64,000 nt of DNA from Bacteroidota bacterium (GCA_018266615.1 JAFEAB010000058.1:4194-68193), one strand, 5' to 3'; numbered from the stretch's first letter, positions 38,376 to 52,833 are shown. A program made the numbers and translations. Notes: generated from the sequence alone by a model not told the origin.

Positions 38376-38822
38376 TTAATTATTTTCCCATGGAGCAGTA
38401 CCTTCAACGGTGATTCCCATACTGCGGGCAGTACCAGCAACCATCGTCATAGCACTTTTCAGGGTGAACGCATTAAGGTCTTCCATTTTATCTTTTGCAA
38501 TTTCTTCTACCTGATTCCAGGAAACCTTACCTACTTTGCTACGATTGGGTTCTTTACTGCCACTTTTCAGTTTAGCAGCTTCCATTAATTGAACGGCAGC
38601 AGGCGGGGTTTTAATTACAAAGTCGAACGACTTATCCGCATAAACAGTGATGAGAACAGGAAGTACTTTTCCTTGTTTGTCCTGGGTTCTAGCATTAAAT
38701 TGTTTGCAGAACTCCATGATGTTGATCCCTTTAGAACCGAGCGCCGGACCAATGGGGGGGGCAGGGTTGGCTTGTCCTCCTTTGCATTGGAGTTTCACAT
38801 AGCCGGTAATTTCTTTAGCCAT
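38376..38822 (-). CDS. rplK: 50S ribosomal protein L11
   Basis: [43 protein letters not shown] is the L11 signature. Confidence 0.97.
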
Positions 38823-39221
38823 TGTAAAAATTTTTGGTGTTAGCGTTCCGGGATATTCCTGGAACTCCCAATTTCCCTTGCGGGAGTCGTAAAAGAACTA
38901 TTTGGGGCGGCAAAGGTAATAGAAATTTAAATAGCCCCAAAATCTTTTCAACCATATTGCCCCTCAACTGGAATATCGCCTTATTGATATTGAAAAAAGG
39001 TTTGGGAGCCGACATAAAGGTACGGTTTTCAGCGCTTTATGCAACAACCTCGCTATAAATATATTAGCCAGGAATGCACGAATGAAATGCATTATCCACG
39101 TATTAAGTTTCTCCTTTATAATCTGCTTTTTAATATAGGGAAAGGTTTGCCACCCGTATTTCAAGAATAAACACCTGCTCAATTGCTTTCGCAGTTAAGG
39201 GATTTCGGAAAAAAAGTTAGG

Positions 39222-39310
39222 GTAGTTTGCTGCCCCCACCCCGGGGGTAAAAATAATGACAGAAAAAATTCGAACAAAGTAATTTGACTGATGAATTTTT
39301 AGTTTGACTT
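39222..39310 (-). repeat. Dispersed promoter-like/GC-hairpin repeat, copy R7 (about 430 nt upstream of rplK)
   Basis: Core at 39232-39254. Minus strand has TTTG (39275-39278), N19, TATTTTTA (39248-39255), then CCCCCGGGGTGGGGGCAGCAAA. Confidence 0.8.
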
Positions 39311-39352
39311 TATTCCTGTTTAGTTGGAAGTAGAGTGGAGAATTTGTCAGGG

Positions 39353-39913
39353 CCACGAATGCACGAATAAAATACCTAAGCCACGAATGCACAAATAAAT
39401 TCCATAAGCCACGAATGCACGAATGAAATCCCTAAGCCACGAATGCACGAATAAAATACCTAAGTCACGAATGCACAAATTAAATATCTAAGCCACGAAT
39501 GCACGAATGAAATACCTAAGCCACGAATGCACAAATGAAATACCTAAGCCACGAATGCACAAATTAAATATCTAAGCCACGAATGCACGAATGAAATACC
39601 TAAGCCACGAATGCACGAATAAAATACCTAAGTCACGAATGCACGAATGAAATACCTAAGCCACGAATGCACAAATAAATTCCATAAGCCACGAATGCAC
39701 GAATGAAATACCTAAGCCACGAATGCACAAATAAATTCCATAAGCCACGAATGCACAAATGAAATACCTAAGCCACGAATGCACGAATAAAATACCTAAG
39801 CCACGAATGCACGAATGAAATCCCTAAGCCACGAATGCACGAATAAAATACCTAAGTCACGAATGCACGAATAAAATACCTAAGCCACGAATGCACGAAT
39901 GAAATTACCTAAA
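39353..39913. repeat. Tandem array of 20 units of 28 bp (consensus CCACGAATGCACGAATGAAATACCTAAG), no spacers
   Basis: Unit starts fall exactly at 39353+28k for k=0-19. Each unit holds two 8-bp direct half-repeats (CACGAATG CACGAAT.). Substitutions are restricted to a few positions. 28 is not a multiple of 3, and stops occur in every frame. Confidence 0.95.
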
Positions 39914-39955
39914 AGGAAAAAATATCAACCGCTTGAGGGGCTATTCCAAATGGTT

Positions 39956-42607
39956 TCAAAATTGCCAGTTTACCATTAACATCGCATAGGGCTTAGCCAC
40001 TGCTGTTTCCATTTTAAATTCATTGTTTACATCATTGAACTGCATCCGATAATTTTTCTGGGCAAATACATTAATAAATTTCAAATCCACCCGTAATGAA
40101 GGGGAAATTTGCCAGGAACTGAAAATATCTGCCTGGTTAAAATGTCCAAAGCTGTATTTATAATAGTTGTATGCTGCCCCAATAAAGAAGGATTTAGAAA
40201 TATCTAGTCGCTGCGAAAGGTAAAGCAGCACATCCCGATTTTTTGTCTTTAACAGCTCTGCCCCCGTCTGCCTGAAAAAATTTAAGTTATTCATATAGGA
40301 TACTTCAAAATTCCAAATGGTCTTGTAATTGCTTACATATTTTATGGAGGTATTGATGCTGTTAATAACCCGATTTACCAAAAGAGAATTTGATTCTCCT
40401 TTGTTAAACTTATTTTCAAATCCCGCATTCAAATAAAAGGTGCCTCTCAATTTTAAAGAATACACTTTAATGTTCCCCTTTATTGCGTTGTTCCATCCTC
40501 CGGAAAATAATTTATAATAATAAATGCTGAGTTGGGGATTATAAATGATTTCCGGTTCCAGGCTCCGGGGCCTCCACTTTACCTGGTAGCTTACCCGGTA
40601 ATCAACCCAACCGGTTCGGGTTAGGGTAAGTGAGGCCAGATGCATTGAAACTGGTTTATACTGATGTGAGATCAATCGCATAACCGATACGCCCTCAATC
40701 AGGCTGTCTTTTAAAATCATTTCGGGTGCAGGCAGGAAATTATAACTTCCCAGATCGGCGCCGAAATGAATCCTTGCATTCAATCGCCCCGATAAATTCC
40801 CATATATTTTATAATGTAGGTAGGTGCGAGAAACAGGTTGCATTAAATTATAAAATCCTGAAGAAGCATATAGTTCAAGATCCTGGCCGGCATCATTTCT
40901 GTTCTTATGAATAAACTGAACTGTGTTTTTATTAAAAGCTAACCGGTTAATGCCCATAGATACCATTTTCGGTTTCATAAATTGCGTGGAAGAATCCATT
41001 TCAATATTCCGGTGGAGCCGGTTATCATAATGAATGAATGATAATTTGAACGTATTGCTCCCCCGCTTTAACCTGCGTAAATAAAAAATATCTCCCAAAA
41101 TAACTTTATTTTCCTGACCAACCTGCTGCTGAAGGAATTTGTTATATGCCGGCTGTTGATAGAACCCTAAAAACCGATCTGTGGAAAACCGGATGGCTCC
41201 ATCCTCTTTAATAAAATAACTGTTTAACGAAAACCCCAAAACCTGTTTGTAGGATAATCGATAGGCCCCCGATGCCGTAAGTGAATATTTCGTGAAATGA
41301 ATTTTCGAATCACTATACAACGTATCTGAATAATCACCGCTTTGAAGTTGTTGATACTCATTTTTTGTTACCCGATGTTGTATCCCTAAACCCAGGTCGA
41401 AGGCTGTTCTCTTTCTGCTGTCTATTTTCAGGGAAACTACACTATTCAAATCATTCGCTTTATGCTGCGAGCCGGCAAAATCGTTAACTTTATAAAAATC
41501 AAATTCAGAAATCCGGGTTTGGGTTGATTGAGTTTGTGATGCCATGCTGGAATTGGCCTCCACATTAGTTCGCCAGAATAATTTGACAGTCTTTGAAATA
41601 GGAATACTTAATGAGGGAAACACATTTTTTCTTGTGTCATTGGGCAAATAGTTTCCTGGTAAATTTAAATTCTTTAAGCTGTTAACCGGGGTAGGATTAA
41701 AATAAGCCACTTCGGAGCTTGTGCGGGTAATTAAATTGCTCTTTGTTCCAACCGTAAAAGAAGGATTTTTATTATCCCCCTCATTATTAAAATTTGAAAA
41801 CAATATACCCTGCTTCCGGTTTTTGATGGCAACCAGATCGATTCCGGCATTATAACGTTTAAAAAAAGAAGTGCCTGCATCTACACTTCCATTTAGTTTT
41901 CCTTCCAATTCCTCTTTGGTAACCAGGTTAACTGCAATATCGCCCGTTTTAAAAACTTCGCCTATAACGCGGTTCTCGCTAAAATTATCAATTACCTGTA
42001 CCCTGTCTAAGGTATTTGCATCAAGGTTCCGGGTAATAACTCCATAATTTGCGCCAGCCAGGTTATCGCCATTTAATAATACGGTTTGCACTTCACGGTT
42101 ATTATAACGTAATTGGCCATTTTTTGCCACCTCAAATCCGGGCAATTTTTTTAGGAGGTCTTCCACCTTTTTGGTTTGCACATCAGTAATACCCCGAACC
42201 AGAAATTCAGTAGTATCCTTGCTTTCCGGAGCCTTTGAATGTAACAATACCCCCTCCAGTGTTTTTGAAGAGGCGGTTAGGAAAAAATGAATTTCTCGCT
42301 GGAGGTGCTTCGGGTCGATTCGTTCGACTTTTGGAAGGTAGGAAATATGCCGACAGGATACCTCTGCAGAAATGCCTTCTGATAATACCAGTTTGATTTC
42401 AAATCGGCCCAAATCATTGGTAAGCCCATATCCAACTATTTGGCGGTTTTGTTGAATGATCACTGTTGCGCCGCTAATGGGTTTACTGCTCAGGGTATCA
42501 CGCACATCACCTTTAACCCATACGGGTGCCTGAGCAAAGGATACACTGGCGGCTGTAAAGCCGGCAAGTATCCAAAATATCCAAATAAGAATCTTCTGAT
42601 ATATCAT
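39956..42607 (-). CDS. Outer-membrane beta-barrel protein with CarboxypepD_reg-like and plug-like N-terminal domains (TonB-dependent-receptor-like)
   Basis: 883 aa with a signal peptide ending SFAQA. VKGDVRDTLSSKPISGATVII is CarboxypepD_reg-like. LKKLPGFEV..NG.L.YNNREVQTVLLNGD is plug-like. The barrel terminates in ..MLMVNWQF. Confidence 0.85.
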   Translation of the reverse strand: MIYQKILIWIFWILAGFTAASVSFAQAPVWVKGDVRDTLSSKPISGATVIIQQNRQIVGYGLTNDLGRFEIKLVLSEGISAEVSCRHISYLPKVERIDPKHLQREIHFFLTASSKTLEGVLLHSKAPESKDTTEFLVRGITDVQTKKVEDLLKKLPGFEVAKNGQLRYNNREVQTVLLNGDNLAGANYGVITRNLDANTLDRVQVIDNFSENRVIGEVFKTGDIAVNLVTKEELEGKLNGSVDAGTSFFKRYNAGIDLVAIKNRKQGILFSNFNNEGDNKNPSFTVGTKSNLITRTSSEVAYFNPTPVNSLKNLNLPGNYLPNDTRKNVFPSLSIPISKTVKLFWRTNVEANSSMASQTQSTQTRISEFDFYKVNDFAGSQHKANDLNSVVSLKIDSRKRTAFDLGLGIQHRVTKNEYQQLQSGDYSDTLYSDSKIHFTKYSLTASGAYRLSYKQVLGFSLNSYFIKEDGAIRFSTDRFLGFYQQPAYNKFLQQQVGQENKVILGDIFYLRRLKRGSNTFKLSFIHYDNRLHRNIEMDSSTQFMKPKMVSMGINRLAFNKNTVQFIHKNRNDAGQDLELYASSGFYNLMQPVSRTYLHYKIYGNLSGRLNARIHFGADLGSYNFLPAPEMILKDSLIEGVSVMRLISHQYKPVSMHLASLTLTRTGWVDYRVSYQVKWRPRSLEPEIIYNPQLSIYYYKLFSGGWNNAIKGNIKVYSLKLRGTFYLNAGFENKFNKGESNSLLVNRVINSINTSIKYVSNYKTIWNFEVSYMNNLNFFRQTGAELLKTKNRDVLLYLSQRLDISKSFFIGAAYNYYKYSFGHFNQADIFSSWQISPSLRVDLKFINVFAQKNYRMQFNDVNNEFKMETAVAKPYAMLMVNWQF

Positions 42608-42683
42608 TAAAATAAAAATGATAAGCCAGCGCTGTTATCAATACTGCACTAACTTATCAAATAAAAATAGTTGCTTAACAGGA

Positions 42684-43427
42684 TCAGTCCAAAAGGTTTT
42701 CAATAAAGGTATATCGCACAGTTACCCCCTCTCCACAATCCAAACAATTGGGGTCGGCTTCCCTACGGGCCTTATCTTTTTCAAGCCTTCGCAGATGCCA
42801 TTTTTTAAACAATGGCTTATAGAGGCTATAATCCCCATTCTCTTTACCAATGCCCAGGTTATATTCATTTGGAACCTTTTCGAAACTCGTCATCTCAAAA
42901 TTATATATACCCTTGCTATCCCCAAGTTTAACAATCAAACCTGGTAGCCCGCAAAACTTCCAGGGGCCATCCTGTATGGGAATATTCAACGCAAAGAAGG
43001 CAGTATACTCCCTTCCCCTAAAATTAGTAACCGCTTTTTGACAATAATTATTCTTTATGGTGGTAAACTGATTCACAATAGTCCAGTGCATGGCAGGTAA
43101 AGAGTCAGACCAGTAATCATTTACGGTATATTCCGGAATCATTGGACCCATAAAGTATAAAGTATGGTTTCCAAAGTCTTTCATAAGGTCAACCCTTGCG
43201 CCAATTTTACCATCCTTACCACGTACCCCTTCCCCAAAAAGACAATAGCTCTTATTTCCATCAATAATAATATACTGATTATTTGTTGATTCCGGGAATG
43301 GTGGGTTGTTGTAACTTCGCTTATAGATAATCTTTATAACAGAATCCCCATCGCTAAATGCACAAACCCGGGAGGCCGGGATAAAGAACATGAGGAAAAA
43401 AACAAACAGCCTAATTAATTTTTTCAT
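42684..43427 (-). CDS. GLPGLI-family protein, copy G1
   Basis: 247 aa with a signal peptide, the motif KFCGLPGLIVK, and the conserved tail KKWHLRRLEKDKARREADPNCLDCGEG. Confidence 0.85.
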   Translation of the reverse strand: MKKLIRLFVFFLMFFIPASRVCAFSDGDSVIKIIYKRSYNNPPFPESTNNQYIIIDGNKSYCLFGEGVRGKDGKIGARVDLMKDFGNHTLYFMGPMIPEYTVNDYWSDSLPAMHWTIVNQFTTIKNNYCQKAVTNFRGREYTAFFALNIPIQDGPWKFCGLPGLIVKLGDSKGIYNFEMTSFEKVPNEYNLGIGKENGDYSLYKPLFKKWHLRRLEKDKARREADPNCLDCGEGVTVRYTFIENLLD

Positions 43428-43510
43428 TTTTGGAAACAGGTTTTCTCATATAAAGTGCAAAAGTGCCTTTCTAATGCTATTGCAAATTAAAATGAAATAG
43501 TTTTTTCAAC

Positions 43511-43825
43511 CTATGGATTTTCAAATTCAGATACCTTGGGGCAATTCAAAGTTGGAGATGGCTCTAAACCAAAGCTCCTCACAGCATTGCATACATTCAG
43601 GTCGCGGCAATTCGCCGCATCGGCCTGGGCCTGGGCACACGAAGAGGCTGTCTTGGTGCAACTAACATCTGTTTCATTTCCACCCGGCCCATAATAGGTG
43701 CCATAAGCAGTGGCGGTACACTTTGAAACTGATTTTAAAATGGAATTCGTCCATGGCGTTTCCGAACTTGCAAATGCAAAAGAACTAACGGCAATTGCCA
43801 TAAAAAAGATTAATACCTTTTTCAT
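43511..43825 (-). CDS. Small secreted 6-Cys protein, copy S1 (unassigned family)
   Basis: 104 aa. Signal peptide MKKVLIFFMAIAVSSFAFA, six Cys, and a tail LEPSPTLNCPKVSEFENP shared with S2-S4. Confidence 0.75.
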   Translation of the reverse strand: MKKVLIFFMAIAVSSFAFASSETPWTNSILKSVSKCTATAYGTYYGPGGNETDVSCTKTASSCAQAQADAANCRDLNVCNAVRSFGLEPSPTLNCPKVSEFENP

Positions 43826-43842
43826 AAATTAAGGTTTGCCGC

Positions 43843-43863
43843 AATAATAATAATAATAATAAT
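43843..43863. repeat. (AAT)7 microsatellite 17 nt upstream of the S1 start codon
   Basis: Counted directly. The equivalent tracts differ in length in the other cassettes. Confidence 0.9.
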
Positions 43864-44034
43864 GGACATAAATTTAACAAACAAGTTATCCACAAGTTTG
43901 AGCATTATCCATTGATTTCGCTAAAAAGAAATTAACCACCTATGTATTTAAAAATTCCTTTTCATTGCAAAAAATAAGTTGGAACATTTTCGCTGAAAGC
44001 CCCAACTTATCAAAAAGTAAATAAAATTAGCCAA

Positions 44035-44778
44035 TCAGTCCAAAAGGTTTTCAATAAAGGTATATCCCACAGTTACCCCCTCACCACAATCCAAACAATT
44101 GGGGTCGGCTTCCCTACGGGCCTTATCTTTTTCAAGCCTTCGCAGATGCCATTTCTTAAACAACCGCTTAAACTGGTTATAATCTCCGTACACTTTTCCA
44201 ATTCCGAGGTTATATACATTCGGAATTTTCTCAAAATTTGACATTTCGTAATTAAAAATTTCCTTGCTATCTGAGATCTTAACGATTAACCCCGGTAGCC
44301 CACAAAATTTAAGGGGGCCATCTTGTATAGGTATATTCAATGCATAAAAGGCAGTATAATCCCTGCCTCTAAAAGTAGTAACCGCTTTTTGGCAGTAATT
44401 ATTATTAATGGTTATAAACTGATTCAAAATGGTCCACTTCATGGCAGGTAGTGAATCTGACCAATAAGAATCCAGGGAGTATTCGGGGTACATAGATCCA
44501 ATAAAGTATAAACATTGGTTACTCCAATCTTTCAATTGAGTTACTCTGGCTGAAATTTTCCCATCCTTACCCTTTTTGCCTTCTCCAAAAAAGAAAAAAC
44601 TCTTATTCCCATCAATAATCAAATACTCAACATTGACTGATTCAGGAAACGGAGGGTTATTATAAATTCGTTTATAGGTTACCTTTATAATGGAATCCCC
44701 ATTGGCAAATGCACTCACTTTCGTTGCAGGAAAAAAGAACAGAATCGCAATAATTAATAGTTCAACTAAATTTTTCAT
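44035..44778 (-). CDS. GLPGLI-family protein, copy G2
   Basis: 247 aa. Aligns with G1 without gaps at roughly three-quarters identity by eye. Motif CGLPGLIVK. Confidence 0.85.
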   Translation of the reverse strand: MKNLVELLIIAILFFFPATKVSAFANGDSIIKVTYKRIYNNPPFPESVNVEYLIIDGNKSFFFFGEGKKGKDGKISARVTQLKDWSNQCLYFIGSMYPEYSLDSYWSDSLPAMKWTILNQFITINNNYCQKAVTTFRGRDYTAFYALNIPIQDGPLKFCGLPGLIVKISDSKEIFNYEMSNFEKIPNVYNLGIGKVYGDYNQFKRLFKKWHLRRLEKDKARREADPNCLDCGEGVTVGYTFIENLLD

Positions 44779-44861
44779 AGTAAGAAACCCGGTTTTGCCA
44801 ATATGAAATTTTCTCCCGTTACCAGGTTAAAGCTAATTAATAAATGTAACTCGCCCTCAAC

Positions 44862-45176
44862 TTATGGATTCTCAAATTCAGAAACTTTTGGGCAATTCAA
44901 CGTTGGAGATGGCTCTAAACCAAAACTCCTCACAGCGTTGCATACATTCAGGTCGCGGCAATTCGCTGCATCGGCCTGCGCCTGGGCACACGAAGAGGCT
45001 GACTTGGTGCAACTAACGTCAACATTATTACCATTTGGGTAATGATAGGTTCCATAGGCAGTAACTGTACATTTTGAAACTGATTTTAAAATGGATTTTG
45101 CCAATGGCGTTTCCGAACTTGCAAATGCAAAAGTACTAACGGCAACTGCCATAAAAAAGATAAATAACTTTTTCAT
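44862..45176 (-). CDS. Small secreted 6-Cys protein, copy S2
   Basis: 104 aa. The C-terminal 42 aa are identical to S1, although the DNA differs at 9 synonymous sites. Confidence 0.8.
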   Translation of the reverse strand: MKKLFIFFMAVAVSTFAFASSETPLAKSILKSVSKCTVTAYGTYHYPNGNNVDVSCTKSASSCAQAQADAANCRDLNVCNAVRSFGLEPSPTLNCPKVSEFENP

Positions 45177-45193
45177 AAATTAGGGTTTGCCGT

Positions 45194-45226
45194 AATAATG
45201 ATAATAATAATAATAATAATAATAAT
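45194..45226. repeat. (AAT)2 GAT (AAT)8 microsatellite 17 nt upstream of the S2 start codon
   Basis: Counted directly. Confidence 0.9.
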
Positions 45227-45399
45227 GGACATAAATTTAACAAACAAGTTATCCACAAGTCTGACCATTAACCATTGATCTTTCTAAAAAGAAATTAACC
45301 TCATATGTATTTATAAATTCCTTTTCAATGCAAAAAATATGTTGGACCCAATTGAGATTAAAGTTCCAGCTTATCAAAAAAGTTAATAAAATTGACTAT

Positions 45400-46146
45400 T
45401 TAATCTAAAAGATTTTCATAAAACACATATCGTACATTACTCCCTTCTCCACATCCTAAACAATTGGGGTCTGCCTCCTTCCTGGCCTTATCTTTTTCCA
45501 GCCTTCGCAAATGCCATTTTTTAAACAACGTTTTATACCGATTGTAATCTCCATTTACTTTACCAATTCCTAAATTGAATTCATTTGGAACCTTTTCAAA
45601 ATTTGTCATCTCGAATTTAAATATGCCCTTACTATCCGAACCCATAACAATCAAGCCGGGCAAACCGCAAAATTTCCAGGGGCCATCCTGAATGGGAATA
45701 TTTACGGCAAAGAAAACAGTATAATCCCTGCCTCTAAAAGTAGTAACCGCTTTCTGGCAGTAATTATTATTTATGGTTAAAAACTGATTTAAAATGGTCC
45801 ATTTCATGGCGGGTAATGAATCTGACCAATAAGAATCCAGGCTGTACTCCGGATACATTGGGCCCATAAAGTACAGATTGTGGTTTTCCCAATCTTTCAT
45901 TTGACTAACACGGGCATTTATTTTCCCATCCTTTCCCTTCTTGCCTTCTCCAATAAAAAAAAAGCTCTTATTTCCATCAATAATCAGAAACTCCTCATCA
46001 TTATACTCTGGCCTTCCAGGTTCGGTAAAACTATATTTATAAGTTATTTTAATGACAGAATCTCCATATACAAATGCATATATTTTAGAAATTGGGATAA
46101 ACCCCAGAAAACAAATAACAAAAATTCCAATTATCTTTTTCATCAT
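45400..46146 (-). CDS. GLPGLI-family protein, copy G3
   Basis: 248 aa. Motif CGLPGLIVM and tail ..EADPNCLGCGEG. Confidence 0.85.
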   Translation of the reverse strand: MMKKIIGIFVICFLGFIPISKIYAFVYGDSVIKITYKYSFTEPGRPEYNDEEFLIIDGNKSFFFIGEGKKGKDGKINARVSQMKDWENHNLYFMGPMYPEYSLDSYWSDSLPAMKWTILNQFLTINNNYCQKAVTTFRGRDYTVFFAVNIPIQDGPWKFCGLPGLIVMGSDSKGIFKFEMTNFEKVPNEFNLGIGKVNGDYNRYKTLFKKWHLRRLEKDKARKEADPNCLGCGEGSNVRYVFYENLLD

Positions 46147-46207
46147 TAGAAAAGGAATTACAATCTGGCAAGTAGTTTAAGAATATATAATCACCTGAAT
46201 ATACACT

Positions 46208-46525
46208 TTATACTGGATCTTCAAATTCAGATACTTTGGGGCAATTTAAAGTAGGAGAAGGCTCAAGATGATAACTTCTCACCACAGTACAAATATTTAA
46301 ATCCCGGCAGTTCGCTGCATCGGCCTGGGCCTGTTCACAGGTTGCAGCTGACCTGGTACAATCAACAGGCACATATGAACCATCAGGCGCATGGCAGGTG
46401 CCATAAGCAGTGGCGGTACATTTGGCAAAAGGTTTTAAAATGGGGTTTTCTAAGGGCGCATCAGTATTTGCAAAGGCAAAAGTTCCAAAGAACAAGGCGA
46501 CAAAAATGAGGAATAAACTTTTCAT
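46208..46525 (-). CDS. Small secreted Cys-rich protein, copy S3 (7 Cys)
   Basis: I use the internal ATG at 46525 (MKSLFLIFVALFFGTFAFA..). The longer track ORF merely translates the upstream microsatellite (FFFYYYYYW). Confidence 0.75.
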   Translation of the reverse strand: MKSLFLIFVALFFGTFAFANTDAPLENPILKPFAKCTATAYGTCHAPDGSYVPVDCTRSAATCEQAQADAANCRDLNICTVVRSYHLEPSPTLNCPKVSEFEDPV

Positions 46526-46542
46526 ATTTTTAATTTTGCGCC

Positions 46543-46569
46543 AATAATAATAATAATAAAAAAAAAAAA
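46543..46569. repeat. (AAT)5 followed by A12 tract 17 nt upstream of the S3 start codon
   Basis: Counted directly. Confidence 0.9.
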
Positions 46570-46747
46570 TAAGGGACATAAATTTAACAATCAAGTTATC
46601 CACAAGCTTGACCATTAACCTTTTATTTCGCTGAAAAGACGATTAACCTTCTATGTTTTTTCCTATCCTGTTTCAATGCAAAATATAAGTTGGAACCATT
46701 TGAGATTAAAGTTCCAGCATATCAAAAAAGTTAATAAAATTGGCTAA

Positions 46748-47491
46748 TTAGTCCAAAAGGTTTTCAATAAAGGTATATCGCACAGTTACCCCCTCACTAC
46801 AATCCAAACAATTGGGATCGGCTTCCCTGCGGGCCTTATCTTTTTCAAGCCTCCGTAAATGCCATTTTTTAAACAAGGATTTGAACTGGCTATAATCTCC
46901 ATACACTTTTCCAATTCCCAAATCATAATCATTGGGAATCTTTTCAAAACTCGTCATTTCAAAATTAAAAATACCCTTGCTATCCGAAATCTTAACGATT
47001 AAGCCAGGGAGCCCACAGAATTTAAAAGGGCCATCCTGTATGGGAATATTTATGGCAAAGAACGCCGTATAATCCCTACCCCTGAACGAAGTAACCGCCT
47101 TTTGGCAATAATTATTTTTAATGGTTAAGAACTGATTCAAAATAGTCCACTTCATGGCAGGTAGTGAATCTGACCAATAGGAATCCAGGTTGTACTCGGG
47201 ATACATTGGGCCCATATAAAATAACCGGTGGTTTTCCCAGTCCTTCATCTGGTCTACTCTGGCACGTAATATTCCGTCTTTCCCCTTCGTTCCACTCCCA
47301 TAAATATAATAACTTATATTTCCAACAATGATCAGGCATTCTTCGCCAATAGATTCTGGGAATGGAGGGTTGTTATAGCTTCGTTTATAGGTTACCTTTA
47401 TGATGGAATCCCCATTGGCAGATGCCCTCACTTTCGTTGCAGGAAAAAAGAACAGAATCGAAATAATTAATAGTTCAGCTAAATTTTTCAT
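46748..47491 (-). CDS. GLPGLI-family protein, copy G4
   Basis: 247 aa. Motif CGLPGLIVK and tail ..EADPNCLDCSEG. Confidence 0.85.
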   Translation of the reverse strand: MKNLAELLIISILFFFPATKVRASANGDSIIKVTYKRSYNNPPFPESIGEECLIIVGNISYYIYGSGTKGKDGILRARVDQMKDWENHRLFYMGPMYPEYNLDSYWSDSLPAMKWTILNQFLTIKNNYCQKAVTSFRGRDYTAFFAINIPIQDGPFKFCGLPGLIVKISDSKGIFNFEMTSFEKIPNDYDLGIGKVYGDYSQFKSLFKKWHLRRLEKDKARREADPNCLDCSEGVTVRYTFIENLLD

Positions 47492-47574
47492 AGTAAAAAA
47501 CCAGGTTTTGCCAATTTGGAATTCCCTTCCGATACCAGGTTAAAGCTAAATAATAAATGTAACTCCCCTTCAAT

Positions 47575-47889
47575 CTATGGATTCTCAAATTCAGAAACTT
47601 TTGGGCAATTCAGCATTGGAGAAGGCTCCAAGCCGTTATTCCTCACTGCGGTACAGACATTCAAATCTCCGCAGTTTGCTGCATCTGCTATAGCCTGTTC
47701 ACAAGATGCTGCTGTCCTGGTGCAACTAACGTCAATAGGAGTGCCACTTGGCCCATAATAGGTACCATAGGCAGTAGCTGTACACTTTGAAACTGATTTT
47801 AAAATGGATTTCTACCATGGCATTTCCGAAATTGCAAATGCAAAAGAACTAACGGCAACTGCCATAAAAAAGATAAATAACTTTCTCAT
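47575..47889 (-). pseudogene. Small secreted 6-Cys protein, copy S4, interrupted by an in-frame TAG at codon 26
   Basis: Same 315-nt length as S1 and S2. Reads MRKLFIFFMAVAVSSFAFAISEMPW*KSILKSVSKCTATAYGTYYGPSGTPIDVSCTRTAASCEQAIADAANCGDLNVCTAVRNNGLEPSPMLNCPKVSEFENP. The TAG is at 47812-47814 on the minus strand. Confidence 0.7.
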
Positions 47890-48002
47890 AAATTAAGGTT
47901 TGCCGCAGTAATAATAATACCAACTTTTATATATATTTTCTTTAATGGATAAAAAACATTCAAAATAATTGGCTCAAAATGCCCTGCTTTTGAATACCAG
48001 AT

Positions 48003-49850
48003 TTAATTTTTATTTGTTGCCGGAAGCGAATCGCGATGCAAAAAGTCATTGTAAAACACCTGTTGTAAAGCCTTTCCATATTTAATGGTTAAGGAATCCA
48101 CCTTCCCGGATTGGAATACGGGTCTTTTTCCCACATTATCGTAAACCAGTTTAGAAGAATCAGTAATAAAACCAAAACCGTTCACAAAAGAGAACCAGGC
48201 CCAGGGACGGTACCCCGGAGAAAGAATATTACGGCTATAATGAAATGCTTCGGAAGAATACCCCAAAATATGGAGCAGGGTAGCTGCTAAATCCGTTTGA
48301 GAACCCACTTTGTGTACAAGCTGCGGTTTGATTCCACCACCCAGCAACAGCAGCGGTATCCTGAACTGGTTACTCTCCATGGGATCGGGCGGATACCGGT
48401 GGCCATGATCAGCTACGATTACAAGGATGGTATTATTCCACCAGGGCATTTGCCGGCAACCATCTACAAATTGTTTCAATACGGCATCCGTATAGTGTAG
48501 GGAATTTAAAAATTTTGAAACATCATCGTTGCCCTTAATTACTACAGGCACCGGGGTTTCGTAAGGCTCATGGCTGCTCAGGGTGAGCCAGGTTGCAAAA
48601 AATGGCTGGGGAAGGGTTTTCAATTTATTCAACAGGAATTGCATCACCACGCCATCATGCGCACCCCATTTAGAGTTGCGGTCAGATTCGCTAAATGAAT
48701 TAACATCCACTATATCATCGAGCCTGCCATGCAACAGGTAGGATTTGATGTTGGCAAACTCCGGCTCTCCACCATAATAAAAGCCGGTATAATACCCATC
48801 CCTGGCCAGCACATTGGTAAGCATGGGAAGCGACCGGGTTTTATTGGGAAATTTCACAATAGAGTTAATGGGTTGTGAGGGATAGCCGCTTAAAACCCCA
48901 ACAATTCCCTTATCGGTACGATCGCCGGTGGCGTAAATATTGCTGAAATACAAACCTTCCTTTTTCAGTTGATTAAACCGGGGGGTTATTTCCACACCAT
49001 GATAATCTTTATCCAGCACTTTTTCTGTAAAGCTTTCCCAAACCACCAGTATCACATTCTTTCGTTTAACCGAATCCGTTAGTAACTGATCCTGTTTAAG
49101 TAACAGGGGGGATATCAGTTCCTTTGCTTTAGCCATATCCATAAAAACAAAAGGGTTCACCTCGGATTTTCTTTCCAGCTTAACAGAATGAATAAAATTC
49201 CAAACCGGGTTAATGGCAGACTGGTTGGCGTAATTATTTTCAGAAAAATACACGCTACTCTGGTTTATGGGGGCTAGCTGTACACCACCCCTCATAGGAA
49301 TAATGGCCAGGCCGGCGAGCAAAACAATCATCAGGCTCACCCACCACCTGTTGGCGGGAGGAAAGGGAATAAATCTTCGAATACCCCTCACCGTTAAAAT
49401 AATAATTAGCAGGATAGTAATGATGACACCCAGGAATATCCAACCTACCGGCAAATTGGATACAGAGGCCCATGCTTCCTTTGGATTTTGCAGGTAACGC
49501 AGCACACCTGCCTCCAGGTGGTGGCCCCAGGCATTATATGAATACCCATCCGACACATACAGCAGCAAAACAGGAATCAGTAATAAAATACTGTAAACAA
49601 CAAACGGCAAACGACGATTAAGGATCGGTATCCAGGTTCCGGCAAGCATTAGTATTAATACAGGAACGGTGAAATAGGTGGCGGTAGAAATATCCATCAG
49701 CAAACCATGGCGAAAAACACCCCAGCATTCGTTAAACCCGGCCACCTCACCTACCCTATAAGTAATCCACAAAAAGAATACCCTGCCGAGGATAAACAGG
49801 AAAACCCAGAAAAAAAAGTAAGCAGCTAAAAAAGAAAGCCTCGGCTTCAT
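48003..49850 (-). CDS. LtaS-like / sulfatase (alkaline-phosphatase superfamily) membrane enzyme
   Basis: 615 aa. About 5 N-terminal TM helices, then an extracytoplasmic sulfatase-like domain (ILVVWESFT, ...LSSHEPY, VADHGH). Confidence 0.85.
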   Translation of the reverse strand: MKPRLSFLAAYFFFWVFLFILGRVFFLWITYRVGEVAGFNECWGVFRHGLLMDISTATYFTVPVLILMLAGTWIPILNRRLPFVVYSILLLIPVLLLYVSDGYSYNAWGHHLEAGVLRYLQNPKEAWASVSNLPVGWIFLGVIITILLIIILTVRGIRRFIPFPPANRWWVSLMIVLLAGLAIIPMRGGVQLAPINQSSVYFSENNYANQSAINPVWNFIHSVKLERKSEVNPFVFMDMAKAKELISPLLLKQDQLLTDSVKRKNVILVVWESFTEKVLDKDYHGVEITPRFNQLKKEGLYFSNIYATGDRTDKGIVGVLSGYPSQPINSIVKFPNKTRSLPMLTNVLARDGYYTGFYYGGEPEFANIKSYLLHGRLDDIVDVNSFSESDRNSKWGAHDGVVMQFLLNKLKTLPQPFFATWLTLSSHEPYETPVPVVIKGNDDVSKFLNSLHYTDAVLKQFVDGCRQMPWWNNTILVIVADHGHRYPPDPMESNQFRIPLLLLGGGIKPQLVHKVGSQTDLAATLLHILGYSSEAFHYSRNILSPGYRPWAWFSFVNGFGFITDSSKLVYDNVGKRPVFQSGKVDSLTIKYGKALQQVFYNDFLHRDSLPATNKN

Positions 49851-49954
49851 AACCTTAGGTTAACTATAAATAAATACCCTGTTTCGCATTATACCAGGTT
49901 GTGATCAAATAAAAGAATAATGCTTTGATTAAAATCGCATGTAGAGTCAAAATT

Positions 49955-49981
49955 AAAAAAGGCCATCCAAACAGGATAGCC
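49955..49981 (-). terminator. Rho-independent terminator after the DUF4920 gene
   Basis: Minus strand reads GGCTATCC-TGTTT-GGATGGCC (one G-U pair) followed by T6. Confidence 0.6.
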
Positions 49982-50005
49982 TTCTAATTTAAAATGTTTT
50001 TAAGA

Positions 50006-50413
50006 TTAATCTGCCACAACCAGGCATTTTGCCTGTAATACGGGTTCTTTTGAAGGTTTAGTAATGGCGTCAATTTCTGCTTTAGATTTTCCGGCATCTT
50101 CGGCATAATGGCGCAGCATGGCCACTGATACTTCTTTAACCTGTGCAGGCCCTTCCACCATTACCTTACGGCCTACCAATGAAACAGGAACCAGAAAAGC
50201 GTGATCTTTCATCCGCACCATCATGGCGCCATCGGCTGTCTTCAATTTAAGCCAGCAGCCTTCATTCTGGCATACTTCCACAACTTCTCCGGATACTTTG
50301 TATTCCGCTTTATTATTATCAGATTGGGCAATCGTAGTGGCCAATTCGTCTGTTGAAATCGCTTTTGCATCTGAAATTTTAGCACCAAAAGTCATGCCTT
50401 TGGTCACTTCCAT
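50006..50413 (-). CDS. DUF4920-domain protein
   Basis: ..VSGEVVEVCQNEGCWLKLK..MVRMKDHAFLVP...VSVAMLRHYAEDAGKSKAEI matches my recollection of DUF4920. The true start is probably further upstream (see findings). Confidence 0.7.
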   Translation of the reverse strand: MEVTKGMTFGAKISDAKAISTDELATTIAQSDNNKAEYKVSGEVVEVCQNEGCWLKLKTADGAMMVRMKDHAFLVPVSLVGRKVMVEGPAQVKEVSVAMLRHYAEDAGKSKAEIDAITKPSKEPVLQAKCLVVAD

Positions 50414-50502
50414 TTGCGGGGGCTGTGCTGCCAGGGCAAAGGAGAAAAGTAGGGTGATAGCAAGCGTAGTAATCGTTTTGATAGCAGTAAATTTTAAAGT
50501 GA

Positions 50503-51129
50503 TTAAGCAATTTTTTCCACCTGCATATAGCTGAGCTCAACAGGTGTAGCACGTCCAAAGATTTTTACCTGAACTTTCAGCTTTTTCTTTTCGTCGTACA
50601 CTTCTTCAATAACGCCGTTAAAATCATTAAATGGACCGTCAATGATTTTAATGGTTTCACCCACAATAAAAGGTTCGCTCATGGTTACGCCACCGGCGTC
50701 GCTCATCTCATCCATTTTGCCCAGCATTTTATTCACTTCGGCTTTACGCAGAGAGATTACATTTCCCTTTGATCCTTTACCATCGGTAAGGAAATGCATC
50801 ACATTGCTGATATTGCTTACATGCTGGATAATATCATCTGCCAGTGTATCGCCCACCACTTCAATCATGATATAACCGGGGTAAAAGTTCCTTTCGCGCA
50901 TTACCTTTTTCCCGTTTACCACTTTATACACTTTCTCAACGGGAAGGAATACCTGCACAATTACTTTATCCCAGCCATTGCGAACGATGTCTTTATCGAG
51001 GTATTCTTTAATCTTCTTTTCCTTGCCACTTACCACGCGAAGCACATACCACTTGGTTTCCTTTCCGGACTTTTCCGAAGGATTTGCGGCATGCTGAACG
51101 CCCTGTTCTGCACTTTTCGTTTCTTCCAT
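50503..51129 (-). CDS. nusG: Transcription termination/antitermination factor NusG
   Basis: KWYVLRVVSGKEKK..(NGN domain) and a C-terminal KOW (GETIKIIDGPFNDFNGVIEEV). Confidence 0.95.
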   Translation of the reverse strand: MEETKSAEQGVQHAANPSEKSGKETKWYVLRVVSGKEKKIKEYLDKDIVRNGWDKVIVQVFLPVEKVYKVVNGKKVMRERNFYPGYIMIEVVGDTLADDIIQHVSNISNVMHFLTDGKGSKGNVISLRKAEVNKMLGKMDEMSDAGGVTMSEPFIVGETIKIIDGPFNDFNGVIEEVYDEKKKLKVQVKIFGRATPVELSYMQVEKIA

Positions 51130-51326
51130 TATGCTTTAAAAAAGGAGTAAATAAATTTCATGCCACCATTGGCGATAAAGTCCATCAGTGCTACCACGGC
51201 CGTAATAAACAGCGTGGCGCCGAGAACAATAACCGTTGATTGTTGCAATTCATCCCATTTGGGCCAGGATACCTTCTCGGTTAATTCCTTATAGGAATCT
51301 TTAACAAATTTTGAAATCTTGTTCAT
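51129..51326 (-). CDS. secE: Preprotein translocase subunit SecE
   Basis: 65 aa with ..ELTEKVSWPKWDELQQSTVIVL.. and a single TM. Overlaps the nusG start by 1 nt. Confidence 0.85.
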   Translation of the reverse strand: MNKISKFVKDSYKELTEKVSWPKWDELQQSTVIVLGATLFITAVVALMDFIANGGMKFIYSFFKA

Positions 51327-51460
51327 TCATTTCGCTTTAACGATGGAGTGGGAAATCTTTCCCAAACCTACACCGCAATTTAATTTTCTTTTCCGAAAGC
51401 CCTTCCACAAACCAATTCCACACGGTGAAATCAGAAAATAAGAGAGGCTGGCTTTCGCTG

Positions 51461-51531
51461 CACGGGCACTAGGATTCGAACCCAGATCAAAGGTTTTGGA
51501 GACCCGTATGCTACCATTGCACCATGCCCGT
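51461..51531 (-). tRNA. tRNA-Trp(CCA): tRNA-Trp (anticodon CCA)
   Basis: Minus strand reads ACGGGCATGGTGCAATGGTAGCATACGGGTCTCCAAAACC...GGTTCGAATCCTAGTGCCCGTG. The acceptor stem pairs, the anticodon loop is CTCCAAA, and the T-arm is GGTTCGAATCC. Confidence 0.9.
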
Positions 51532-51540
51532 AAATAAGCT

Positions 51541-51574
51541 AAAAGCTATCCACCAACCGGCAGACAGCTTTTAG
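51541..51574 (-). terminator. Hairpin between tuf and tRNA-Trp (weak terminator or processing site)
   Basis: Minus strand reads AGCTGTCTGCC-GGTT-GGTGGATAGCT (3 G-U pairs) followed by only TTTT. Confidence 0.4.
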
Positions 51575-51645
51575 ATTATAATGTAAAGATAAATTAATAT
51601 CTATAACAATAAGCCGTGCACCAGCGTTTTACGCTGAGCGTAAGC

Positions 51646-52833
51646 TTATTTAATGATCTCGGTAACCTGGCCGGCACCTACTGTACGTCCTCCTTCGCGA
51701 ATCGCGAATTTCAGACCTTTTTCCATTGCGATTGGAGCAATGAGTTTTACAGTAAGGCTGGTGTTATCGCCAGGCATCACCATTTCTGTACCTGCTGCCA
51801 GTTCCACTTCTCCGGTTACGTCGGTAGTACGGAAATAGAACTGAGGACGGTATTTGTTGAAGAATGGAGTATGACGTCCACCCTCTTCTTTGCTCAACAC
51901 ATAAACTTCCCCTTTAAATTCGGTGTGAGGAGTGATTGAGCCGGGTTTGCAAAGTACCATACCACGGCGGATTTGGTTCTTTTCAATACCACGTAGCAGT
52001 AATCCTGCGTTATCACCTGCTTCCCCTTCGTCTAACAATTTCTTAAACATTTCCACACCGGTGCAGGTAGTAGGCAGTGGTTTTTCCATCAAGCCCACGA
52101 TTTCGATTGCCTCACCAACTTTAATGCGGCCACGTTCGATACGGCCGGTAGCTACGGTACCACGACCGGTGATAGAGAACACGTCTTCTACCGACATCAG
52201 GAACGGCTGATCAACCAACCGGGGAGGAAGCGGGATATAAGTATCTACAGCTTCCATGAGTTCGTTGATTTTGGCAACCCATTTTTCTTCGCCGGCAAGA
52301 GCACCGGTTGCAGAACCCTGGATGATTGGTGTGTTATCGCCATCAAAGCCATAAGAGCTAAGTAATTCGCGAATTTCCATTTCAACCAATTCAAGCAGTT
52401 CGGGATCATCAACAAGGTCAACCTTGTTCATGAATACCACAATACGAGGTACCCCTACCTGGCGGGCCAGAAGGATATGTTCTTTGGTTTGTGGCATCGG
52501 ACCGTCGGTAGCAGCAACCACGAGAATTGCGCCATCCATCTGAGCGGCACCGGTAATCATATTTTTTACATAGTCGGCGTGGCCTGGGCAGTCAACGTGC
52601 GCATAGTGGCGGTTAGCGGTTGCATATTCCACGTGCGCTGTATTGATCGTGATACCCCTTTCTTTTTCTTCCGGAGCACCGTCGATATCATCATAGTTTC
52701 TTTTTTCCGCTAAACCTTTTTTTGACAAAACATCGGTAATAGCGGCGGTAAGTGTTGTTTTTCCATGGTCAACGTGACCGATAGTTCCAACGTTTAAGTG
52801 GGGTTTATCCCTCTTGAAAGATTCTTTTGCCAT
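51646..52833 (-). CDS. tuf: Elongation factor Tu
   Basis: 395 aa. [31 protein letters not shown]. Confidence 0.99.

Follow-up and report, generated by a model that had tools for sequence, protein, structure and literature searches.

A cysteine-rich mini-protein family joined to GLPGLI proteins and a TonB-dependent-transporter-like outer membrane protein in a conserved three-gene module of uncultured Bacteroidota

In a 64,000-nucleotide (nt) stretch of DNA from a Bacteroidota bacterium (GCA_018266615.1 JAFEAB010000058.1:4194-68193; the whole stretch is hereafter the window), the minus strand carries four tandem cassettes, each pairing a gene for a small secreted cysteine-rich protein (S) with a gene for a GLPGLI-family protein (G), followed by one gene for an outer membrane protein (OMP). 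It is clear that S, G, and OMP form a conserved three-gene envelope module, the S-G part of which has been tandemly amplified in the window, and that S is a real and new protein family without named relatives. All three products are predicted to be exported to the cell envelope, and their genes are arranged and inherited as a unit. An earlier sequence-only reading had proposed the array as a candidate undescribed system of secreted peptides, and the proposal stands as one for the envelope, with S coupled to a GLPGLI gene and, via G, to the OMP. Its coordinates for the nine minus-strand open reading frames (ORFs) were all correct (Table 1), and its cassette period of 1348-1365 bp agrees with the measured values of 1351, 1365, and 1348 bp.

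The module was traced with a profile of S searched exhaustively (HMMER) against 1.84 billion representative proteins. Homologues of S do exist but are few: the search added just eight clusters of small proteins (P0131-P0138; 33-54% identical), while two long matches, P0139 and P0140, were judged spurious given their internal repetitiveness and lack of consistent domains. The word-indexed protein search and a scan of GTDB genomes reached the window's own species only; the distant relatives come from the exhaustive hidden Markov model (HMM) search alone. On the contigs of P0131-P0138, a GLPGLI gene lies directly 3′ of S in every case, and an OMP homologue of 870-897 amino acids (aa) lies 3′ of G wherever the contig continues, likewise in loci L020, L022, and L027; in several lineages the module genes overlap or are <60 nt apart. 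Uniform HMM annotation of 29 loci, covering 11 S lineages, placed G after S in all judgeable lineages and the OMP after G in nine of nine, so that the systematic adjacency suggested by the sequence-only reading is borne out. Furthermore, the identities of S, G, and OMP co-vary over lineages (r 0.82-0.90), as expected for a jointly inherited unit. Family-wide synteny and coding-type conservation thus put the array far beyond a chance repeat.

The module is chromosomal and vertically inherited. Its flanking genes vary among lineages, and no linkage to metabolic or regulatory genes is seen. With tblastn, S had no match in 72,556 plasmids and 50,697 phages, and an origin in a mobile element or phage was dropped after this blank. 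Metagenomes of activated sludge and related sources yielded 18 contigs that encode a protein identical to S1, one of them a Chitinophagaceae metagenome-assembled genome; in GTDB, an uncultured Ferruginibacter sp. serves as the representative. The family is rare. It comprises about 11 lineages, every one from a metagenome, with activated sludge given in the source descriptions examined; no cultured isolate was seen to carry it, and the module has so far turned up only in uncultured Chitinophagaceae-like bacteria. It is often single-copy (L008, L009, L016, L022, and L027), and S-G amplification recurs in L012, L019, and L020. Related contigs with three cassettes carry either a 3-2-1 set (L001-L003) or 4*-3-1′ (L007; 4* is the stop-bearing S4 and 1′ is S1-like). 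Cassette number and composition therefore vary among related contigs, to which short-read collapse may contribute. As a separate observation, one 770-nt ENA contig (P0010) encodes a 107-aa protein in which S2 residues 1-35 run into the C-terminal part of a transketolase (PF02780); the contig is probably a metagenomic chimera.

The S proteins possess the signal peptide ending in FAFA, the near-invariant tail, and the six conserved cysteines (aligned at 36, 56, 63, 73, 79, and 95) that the sequence-only reading had described. Two of its details require revision. The mature protein measures ~85 aa (8.7 kDa) rather than ~82 aa, and the four S genes of 104-105 aa are in fact three intact genes (S1-S3), since S4 has a stop at codon 26. 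This stop recurs in L007, an independent assembly of the same species, and an intact S4 allele (P0009) comes from another sample; S4 is therefore a recent pseudogene. S is predicted to be Sec-exported and cleaved after FAFA. In S1, the signal peptide (1-19) precedes a beta-sheet (36-60), a helix (63-84), and an extended tail (85-104). A 15-sequence alignment yields the family pattern C-T-x-T-A-[YF]...C-T-x-[TS]-[AG]-x-x-C-x(9)-C-R-[DN]-x-[NK]-[IV]-C...L-[NG]-C after the signal peptide; at all loci S is encoded directly 5′ of a GLPGLI gene, and every partner G bears the CxxC tail. Core and cysteines persist down to 26-40% identity among lineages. As the sequence-only reading had also held, S falls outside any named family: Pfam, NCBIfam, and PADLOC gave no match, and the PDB searched by sequence gave nothing usable (best E 0.51, to FeoB, judged noise).

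The AlphaFold2 model of S, built as a monomer from a 14-row alignment, has a predicted local distance difference test score (pLDDT) of 80-94 over residues 31-90 and comprises four short strands (36-60), the long helix (63-84), and the extended tail. Foldseek found nothing usable for it, with a best E of 1.2 in the PDB and 0.21 among the viral folds of BFVD. On this model, the S domain is probably a small beta-sheet plus helix locked by three disulfides. A variant in L022, located beside a more distant OMP homologue, has 91 aa and four cysteines and is without Cys5, Cys6, and the tail together, a joint loss that argues for a C79-C95 disulfide. The same locus retains the CxxC motif of its G protein, and co-variation between the S tail and that motif was accordingly rejected.

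Among the S paralogues, synonymous divergence (dS) is 0.35-1.24 and the ratio of nonsynonymous to synonymous divergence (dN/dS) 0.13-0.31. Half of S is invariant among paralogues that share one OMP. In the helix and tail, the proportion of nonsynonymous differences (pN) is ~0.05-0.09 against a synonymous proportion (pS) of 0.39-0.72, so that their invariance is maintained by selection and not by recent gene conversion. The most variable part, even within a converted tract, is the beta-hairpin loop (aa 44-54). Positive selection on this loop was tested and not found; its pN/pS of 0.61 indicates relaxed constraint, not demonstrable positive selection.

The second component is securely a member of the GLPGLI family, as had been recognized: TIGR01200 scores 109.8 bits for G1 (E 1.7e-31) and 106.5 bits for G3 against a cut-off of 50, and PF09697 scores 28.9 and 25.1 bits, respectively, against a cut-off of 25. 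G1-G4 are 71-82% identical and share the motif FCGLPGLIV and the tail KKWHLRRLEKDKAR.EADPNCL.C.EG; the motifs and lengths (247-248 aa) given by the sequence-only reading hold, and its gap-free alignment does so except for one extra N-terminal Met in G3. The GLPGLI motif and an upstream FRGR...DGPWKF block are invariant in G1-G4 and in 98 homologues. A C-terminal CxxC motif, usually DPNCxxC, sets the S-linked proteins apart: it is present in 18 of 18 (the four in the window and 14/14 from other modules), in none of 91 other GLPGLI homologues, and absent as well from an S-less G-OMP pair of Mucilaginibacter ginkgonis (L029). The S-linked G subfamily has thus gained a C-terminal DPNCxxC motif.

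Searched alone against the PDB by sequence, G returned nothing. The monomer model of G1 (pLDDT 87.8, predicted template modeling score 0.83) is a 12-strand open beta bowl followed by a basic C-terminal helix (200-224) and a flexible tail that bears C228-x-x-C231, the CxxC segment having a pLDDT of 61-82. The best Foldseek match is to the bowl-like domain (NBL) at the N terminus of PNGase F-II (E 1.5e-7, 198 columns, 19% identity, TMq 0.5), and the corresponding family PF22252 co-matches many GLPGLI homologues. Next come LolA, LolB, RseB/MucB (E 2e-4 to 3e-2), and VioE, that is, the LolA carrier superfamily. Matches to LolA, LolB, and RseB have probabilities of 0.94-1.0, yet TM-scores of 0.23-0.47, root-mean-square deviations of 5.5-13 Å, and identities of 5-14%. 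No thioredoxin fold occurs among the Foldseek matches. Judged from this model, G would be a soluble periplasmic protein with an open beta-bowl carrier fold of the LolA/RseB type. Carriers and binders of the LolA superfamily are periplasmic and pass a partner to an outer-membrane component.

The third component consists of a signal peptide, a CarboxypepD_reg-like N-terminal extension (31-120), a TonB-box-like TLEGVLL, a plug-like motif VEDLLKKLPGFEV, and a C-terminal Phe, a residue typical of the ends of barrel proteins. The sequence-only reading had called it an 883-aa plug/beta-barrel protein; the length is right, and the domain matches are weaker than that name implies. PF13715 (CarbopepD_reg_2) scores 29.1 bits (E 1e-6), just below the cut-off of 32.2, and Plug (PF07715) 13.9 bits against a cut-off of 23.9 (E 0.079). 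Among 31 family members and relatives, PF13715 matches 30, PF14905 16, Plug three, and PF00593 one. By sequence alone against the PDB, the single protein returned nothing; the family profile aligns to the N-terminal extension of SusC through its DEVVV TonB box (5t3r_D, E 1.7e-10), with SSKTLEGVLLHS of the OMP opposite QMVDEVVVTG of SusC as the candidate TonB box. TL[SE]E[VI] and a plug-like VEDLLKxLPGFEV are conserved in all S-linked OMPs. The close family consists of S-linked proteins only (36-100% identity), beyond which stand CarboxypepD_reg plus PF14905 proteins annotated as "outer membrane beta-barrel" or "TonB-dependent receptor"; distant homologues carry PF14905, Plug, or TonB_dep_Rec_b-barrel domains. 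As far as sequence comparison can tell, the OMP therefore has the layout of a SusC/Oar-type TonB-dependent transporter, with a CarboxypepD_reg-type extension.

The array itself is not of recent making. Its paralogues (dS 0.35-1.6, dN/dS 0.12-0.31) are old, mosaic, and under purifying selection. A sliding-window comparison of cassettes 1 and 2 gives 91-97% identity in the region upstream of S and most of S, ~66-75% in the variable loop of S, 38-65% over the S-G spacer with the adjoining 5′ half of G (58-65% between the 5′ halves of G1 and G2), and 96-100% at the 3′ terminus of G. Cassettes 2 and 4 are alike (85-96%) over an interval that begins at the 3′ end of S and extends into the 5′ end of G. 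Cognate S and G are therefore not co-diverging, and segments have been shuffled by gene conversion. What the sequence-only reading took for copy-specific diversification is thus an old mosaic and not positive selection. Its strict 1:1 pairing of S and G likewise gives way, as S can be nonsense-mutated, truncated, or missing beside an intact G: S4 in the window has its nonsense codon, the first S of L019 (511-792) is truncated after the second Cys, a 5′-deleted S in L020 (8951-9190) is fused to the end of the upstream G, and L012 has one G without any S. Between two G genes of L012, a 72-aa ORF (1404-1622) is an N-terminal remnant of the OMP (signal peptide and start of CarboxypepD_reg); earlier duplications therefore included the OMP.

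How might such a module work? We tentatively favor, well short of conviction, a model by analogy in which S crosses the periplasm on G and reaches the TonB-type OMP, there to be exported or displayed, much as Oar handles PopC. In this model, G would bind S in the periplasm, its own invariant core, C-terminal helix, and CxxC tail meeting the invariant helix and tail of S, and would then hand S over to the shared OMP, which would export or display it at the outer membrane in a TonB-dependent manner. The variable beta-hairpin loop and the N-terminal arm of S would provide isoform-specific, outward-facing specificity, and the hairpins after each G, along with S coming first in gene order, would raise S and G above the OMP in abundance. 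The outward direction is favored because small multi-disulfide proteins are typically extracellular, because S is the only module-specific addition to an otherwise free-standing G-OMP pair, and because Oar, a TonB-dependent transporter whose N-terminal extension is likewise of the CarboxypepD_reg type, sets a precedent for export by secreting PopC from the periplasm (PMC6434023). The fully specified two-step route, whereby a LolA-fold GLPGLI chaperone would pass a disulfide-knotted mini-protein to an outward-running, TonB-dependent-transporter-like barrel, is doubtful.

Several observations weigh against this carrier model. The OMP of the window lies under the Pfam threshold for Plug and has no match to PF14905 or PF00593. 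S has no recognizable export signal beyond its Sec signal peptide. To our knowledge, TonB-dependent transporters overwhelmingly import, and export has been documented in one case. Generic GLPGLI-OMP pairs occur without any S, and G stays intact after S has decayed, so that G has a role independent of its cognate S. Finally, the hairpin between G1 and the OMP is a candidate attenuator from its folding energy alone.

A somewhat doubtful though serious alternative is that the module imports. The OMP would take up a hydrophobic or scarce ligand, G would act as its periplasmic acceptor with the ligand held in the LolA-like bowl, and S would be an accessory for ligand capture or hand-over, either hemophore-like or a periplasmic adaptor, with several S-G isoforms feeding one channel. 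Several binding proteins per transporter are a common design, the LolA-like fold of G suits a hydrophobic cargo, and the OMP is laid out like a TonB-dependent transporter. The wide occurrence of S-less GLPGLI-OMP pairs implies a core function independent of S, and a PF14905 transporter of Flavobacterium is nutrient-regulated (PMC8115612). The difficulty for import lies in S, in which no ligand-binding motif or cavity is evident and whose fold matches nothing known; were it hemophore-like, it would still require an export route. Nor are metabolic or regulatory genes linked to the module, the neighbors of which vary by lineage.

The likeness to bacteriocin/immunity arrays that had been drawn from the sequence is harder to sustain, and such a function appears unlikely. 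S would be a disulfide-stabilized, Sec-exported toxin, G its periplasmic immunity protein, and the OMP an exporter or receptor, with the extra cassettes as a reserve of toxin/immunity variants together with orphan immunity genes. Bacteriocins are typically small, secreted, and rich in disulfides, and the array does resemble such systems in its tandem cassettes of a small secreted protein and a partner: the pair is amplified in at least four lineages, recombination shuffles the cassettes, and the decay of the first gene with retention of the second recalls orphan immunity genes. However, the large family to which G belongs normally pairs with OMPs of this type in the absence of any S, so that the partner is ancestrally an OMP accessory. 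No positive selection is seen (dN/dS <=0.31, loop 0.61), half of S is invariant between paralogues, and S and G have discordant identity profiles within mosaic cassettes and do not co-diverge. Pfam, NCBIfam, PADLOC, and tblastn searches of toxin, defense, phage, and plasmid collections gave no matches, and the module is chromosomal, vertical, and often single-copy.

Thiol or metal chemistry, in which the cysteines would be more than structural disulfides and the CxxC of G and the Cys-rich S would act together as a redox relay or a device for Cu/Zn hand-over that serves the OMP, is quite improbable. Thiol-disulfide oxidoreductases and Cu(I) chaperones are classically marked by CxxC, which here co-occurs exactly with S and sits in a segment that is flexible in the G model (pLDDT 61-82). 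Against this stand the lack of a thioredoxin fold in G, the paired loss of cysteines in the S of L022, which suits structural disulfides, the want of a His, Met, or Asp metal-site pattern in S, and the lack of linked metal-homeostasis genes. Lastly, the notion that the S ORFs are non-functional (whether annotation noise or conserved sequence that serves the G genes as leader or regulator), to which a stop codon in one copy, the want of a database family, and great rarity might point, is effectively excluded by a coding-type substitution pattern with abundant synonymous change, Cys and core residues conserved to 26-40% identity, canonical signal peptides in all copies, and a confident structure model.

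Given these alternatives, the distance between the module and better-known systems is instructive. The nearest relatives are the ordinary pairs of a GLPGLI gene and a CarboxypepD_reg/PF14905 OMP gene, as exemplified by L029. What the module has in common with these is a G with the GLPGLI motif, which here scores 107-110 bits against TIGR01200 and is encoded directly 5′ of the OMP, and an OMP whose distant homologues carry PF13715/PF13620 plus PF14905. They differ in that the module has S as an extra first gene, a G with a C-terminal helix followed by DPNCxxC, and an OMP from a clade too divergent for PF14905 to score. No function for a GLPGLI-OMP pair appeared in the literature searched. With Oar-PopC of Myxococcus xanthus, the module shares the CarboxypepD_reg extension of the OMP, with a candidate TonB box and a plug-like motif on its own side, and, on the carrier model, a passenger that waits in the periplasm before it crosses the outer membrane (PMC6434023). 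However, PopC is a 50-kDa protease without signal peptide or dedicated carrier, whereas the candidate passenger S, whose export we infer, is small (8.7 kDa), Sec-dependent, and rich in disulfides, and has a partner of predicted LolA-like fold; the sequence relation extends to the general transporter layout only.

The structural comparisons are similarly partial. LolA/LolB and RseB/MucB are matched by the predicted open beta bowl of G (Foldseek E 2e-4 to 3e-2), at the low TM-scores given above, but S has no lipobox Cys and is not a lipoprotein, no link to LolCDE or LolB is found, and G adds a long C-terminal helix and a CxxC tail. The NBL domain of PNGase F-II (PDB 4R4X/4R4Z; PF22252), despite being the best structural match of G, is an accessory domain of an enzyme and has no known role, whereas G is stand-alone and has no catalytic domain. 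SusC/SusD and HasA/HasR offer parallels in which one TonB-dependent barrel has dedicated small partners encoded alongside, and the N-terminal extension and TonB-box region of the OMP align to a SusC homologue. Neither G nor S is a lipoprotein or related to SusD or HasA, the G gene lies 5′ of the barrel gene, and there are no glycan- or heme-related genes nearby.

Elements with potential bearing on expression are listed with the genes in Table 1. The hairpin in the G1-OMP spacer leaves no room for a promoter, and the OMP would therefore be made by read-through; this hairpin is not universal, since G and OMP overlap in other lineages. An (ATT)n tract lies 17-20 nt 5′ of every intact S start, and (ATT)6 occupies the equivalent site in the distant L008. 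Such tracts may constitute a putative unstructured A/U-rich leader or a slippage-prone expression element. A scan for sigma-70 promoters gave 38 sites versus 35 expected, sigma-70 being the wrong promoter type for Bacteroidota.

Table 1. Genes of the array and candidate expression elements, with positions counted from the first nucleotide of the window.
Feature	Position	Strand	Basis or remark
S4, mini-protein pseudogene	47575..47889	-	In-frame TAG at codon 26 (MPW*KS), read in translation
G4, GLPGLI protein, C-terminal DPNCLDC	46748..47491	-	ORF, alignment
S3, intact mini-protein, 105 aa	46208..46525	-	Most divergent S copy; one extra Cys
G3, GLPGLI protein, 248 aa	45400..46146	-	ORF, TIGR01200 match, alignment
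S2, intact mini-protein, 104 aa	44862..45176	-	ORF, alignment
G2, GLPGLI protein, 247 aa	44035..44778	-	ORF, alignment
S1, intact mini-protein, 104 aa	43511..43825	-	ORF, alignment, structure model
G1, GLPGLI protein, 247 aa	42684..43427	-	TIGR01200 match, structure model, Foldseek (4r4z, LolA)
OMP, 883 aa	39956..42607	-	ORF, domain matches, family profile
Hairpin + U-run in 76-nt G1-OMP spacer	42608..42659	-	-19.4 kcal/mol, z -3.7; candidate attenuator or partial terminator
Hairpin + U-run directly 3′ of G2	43966..44011	-	-17.1 kcal/mol, z -1.9
Weaker homologous elements after G3 and G4	~45335-45375; 46682-46723	-	No clear fold
(ATT)7 microsatellite, 17 nt 5′ of S1 start	43843..43863	-	10 units in L007
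(ATT)8 microsatellite, 5′ of S2 start	45203..45226	-	4 units in L001-L006 and L023
(ATT)5 microsatellite, 5′ of S3 start	46543..46557	-	6 units in L024

The S3 ORF can be extended 5′ to 46615, and its start by homology is 46525. Within the window, HMM annotation found no other homologues of S, G, or OMP beyond the array. On the minus strand, tuf, secE, nusG, a DUF4920 gene, and a gene for an LtaS-like sulfatase precede S4, and the OMP gene is followed by a 28-nt minisatellite and then rplK, rplA, rplJ, and rplL. The array thus interrupts, together with the DUF4920 gene (50006-50413) and the sulfatase gene (48003-49850), the usually contiguous tuf-secE-nusG-rplKAJL cluster (38376-52833). These two genes were rejected as members of the system, as they stand beside the module only in the window's own species. 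Elsewhere, the module adjoins rplK in L019, as in the window, and comes after rplL in L009-L011.

Three further features of the neighborhood were recorded. The minisatellite (39352-39912, between the OMP stop and rplK) has ~21 copies of the unit TTAGGTATTTTATTCGTGCATTCGTGGC (coding strand) with 89% matches; related contigs have 22, 8, 8, 7, 4, and 19 copies, and other lineages none. A tRNA gene on the minus strand (51461-51531), in the interval between tuf and secE, is the sole Rfam match in 36-53 kb. A strong terminator-like hairpin of 12 pairs and a T-run lies on the same strand (49957-49985) between the DUF4920 gene and the sulfatase gene.

Of the unexplained paralogous gene pairs in Bacteroidota, those that encode a GLPGLI protein and a CarboxypepD_reg/beta-barrel partner rank with the most common. 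The GLPGLI-OMP pair was already widely annotated; what is new is the S family, its obligatory place before a CxxC-tailed GLPGLI subfamily, and the tandem amplification of S-G. Practical reach is limited for now, given the rarity of the family. As such, the value of the module lies in S as a defined candidate partner, and in a CxxC motif of G that is present exactly with S, which together provide a first testable handle on GLPGLI function. If S is exported via the OMP, this would be the second TonB-dependent transporter to act in protein secretion and the first with a dedicated periplasmic carrier. Were that route true, the GLPGLI/PF14905 pairs would represent a general carrier-plus-channel system that moves cargo between the periplasm and the cell surface.

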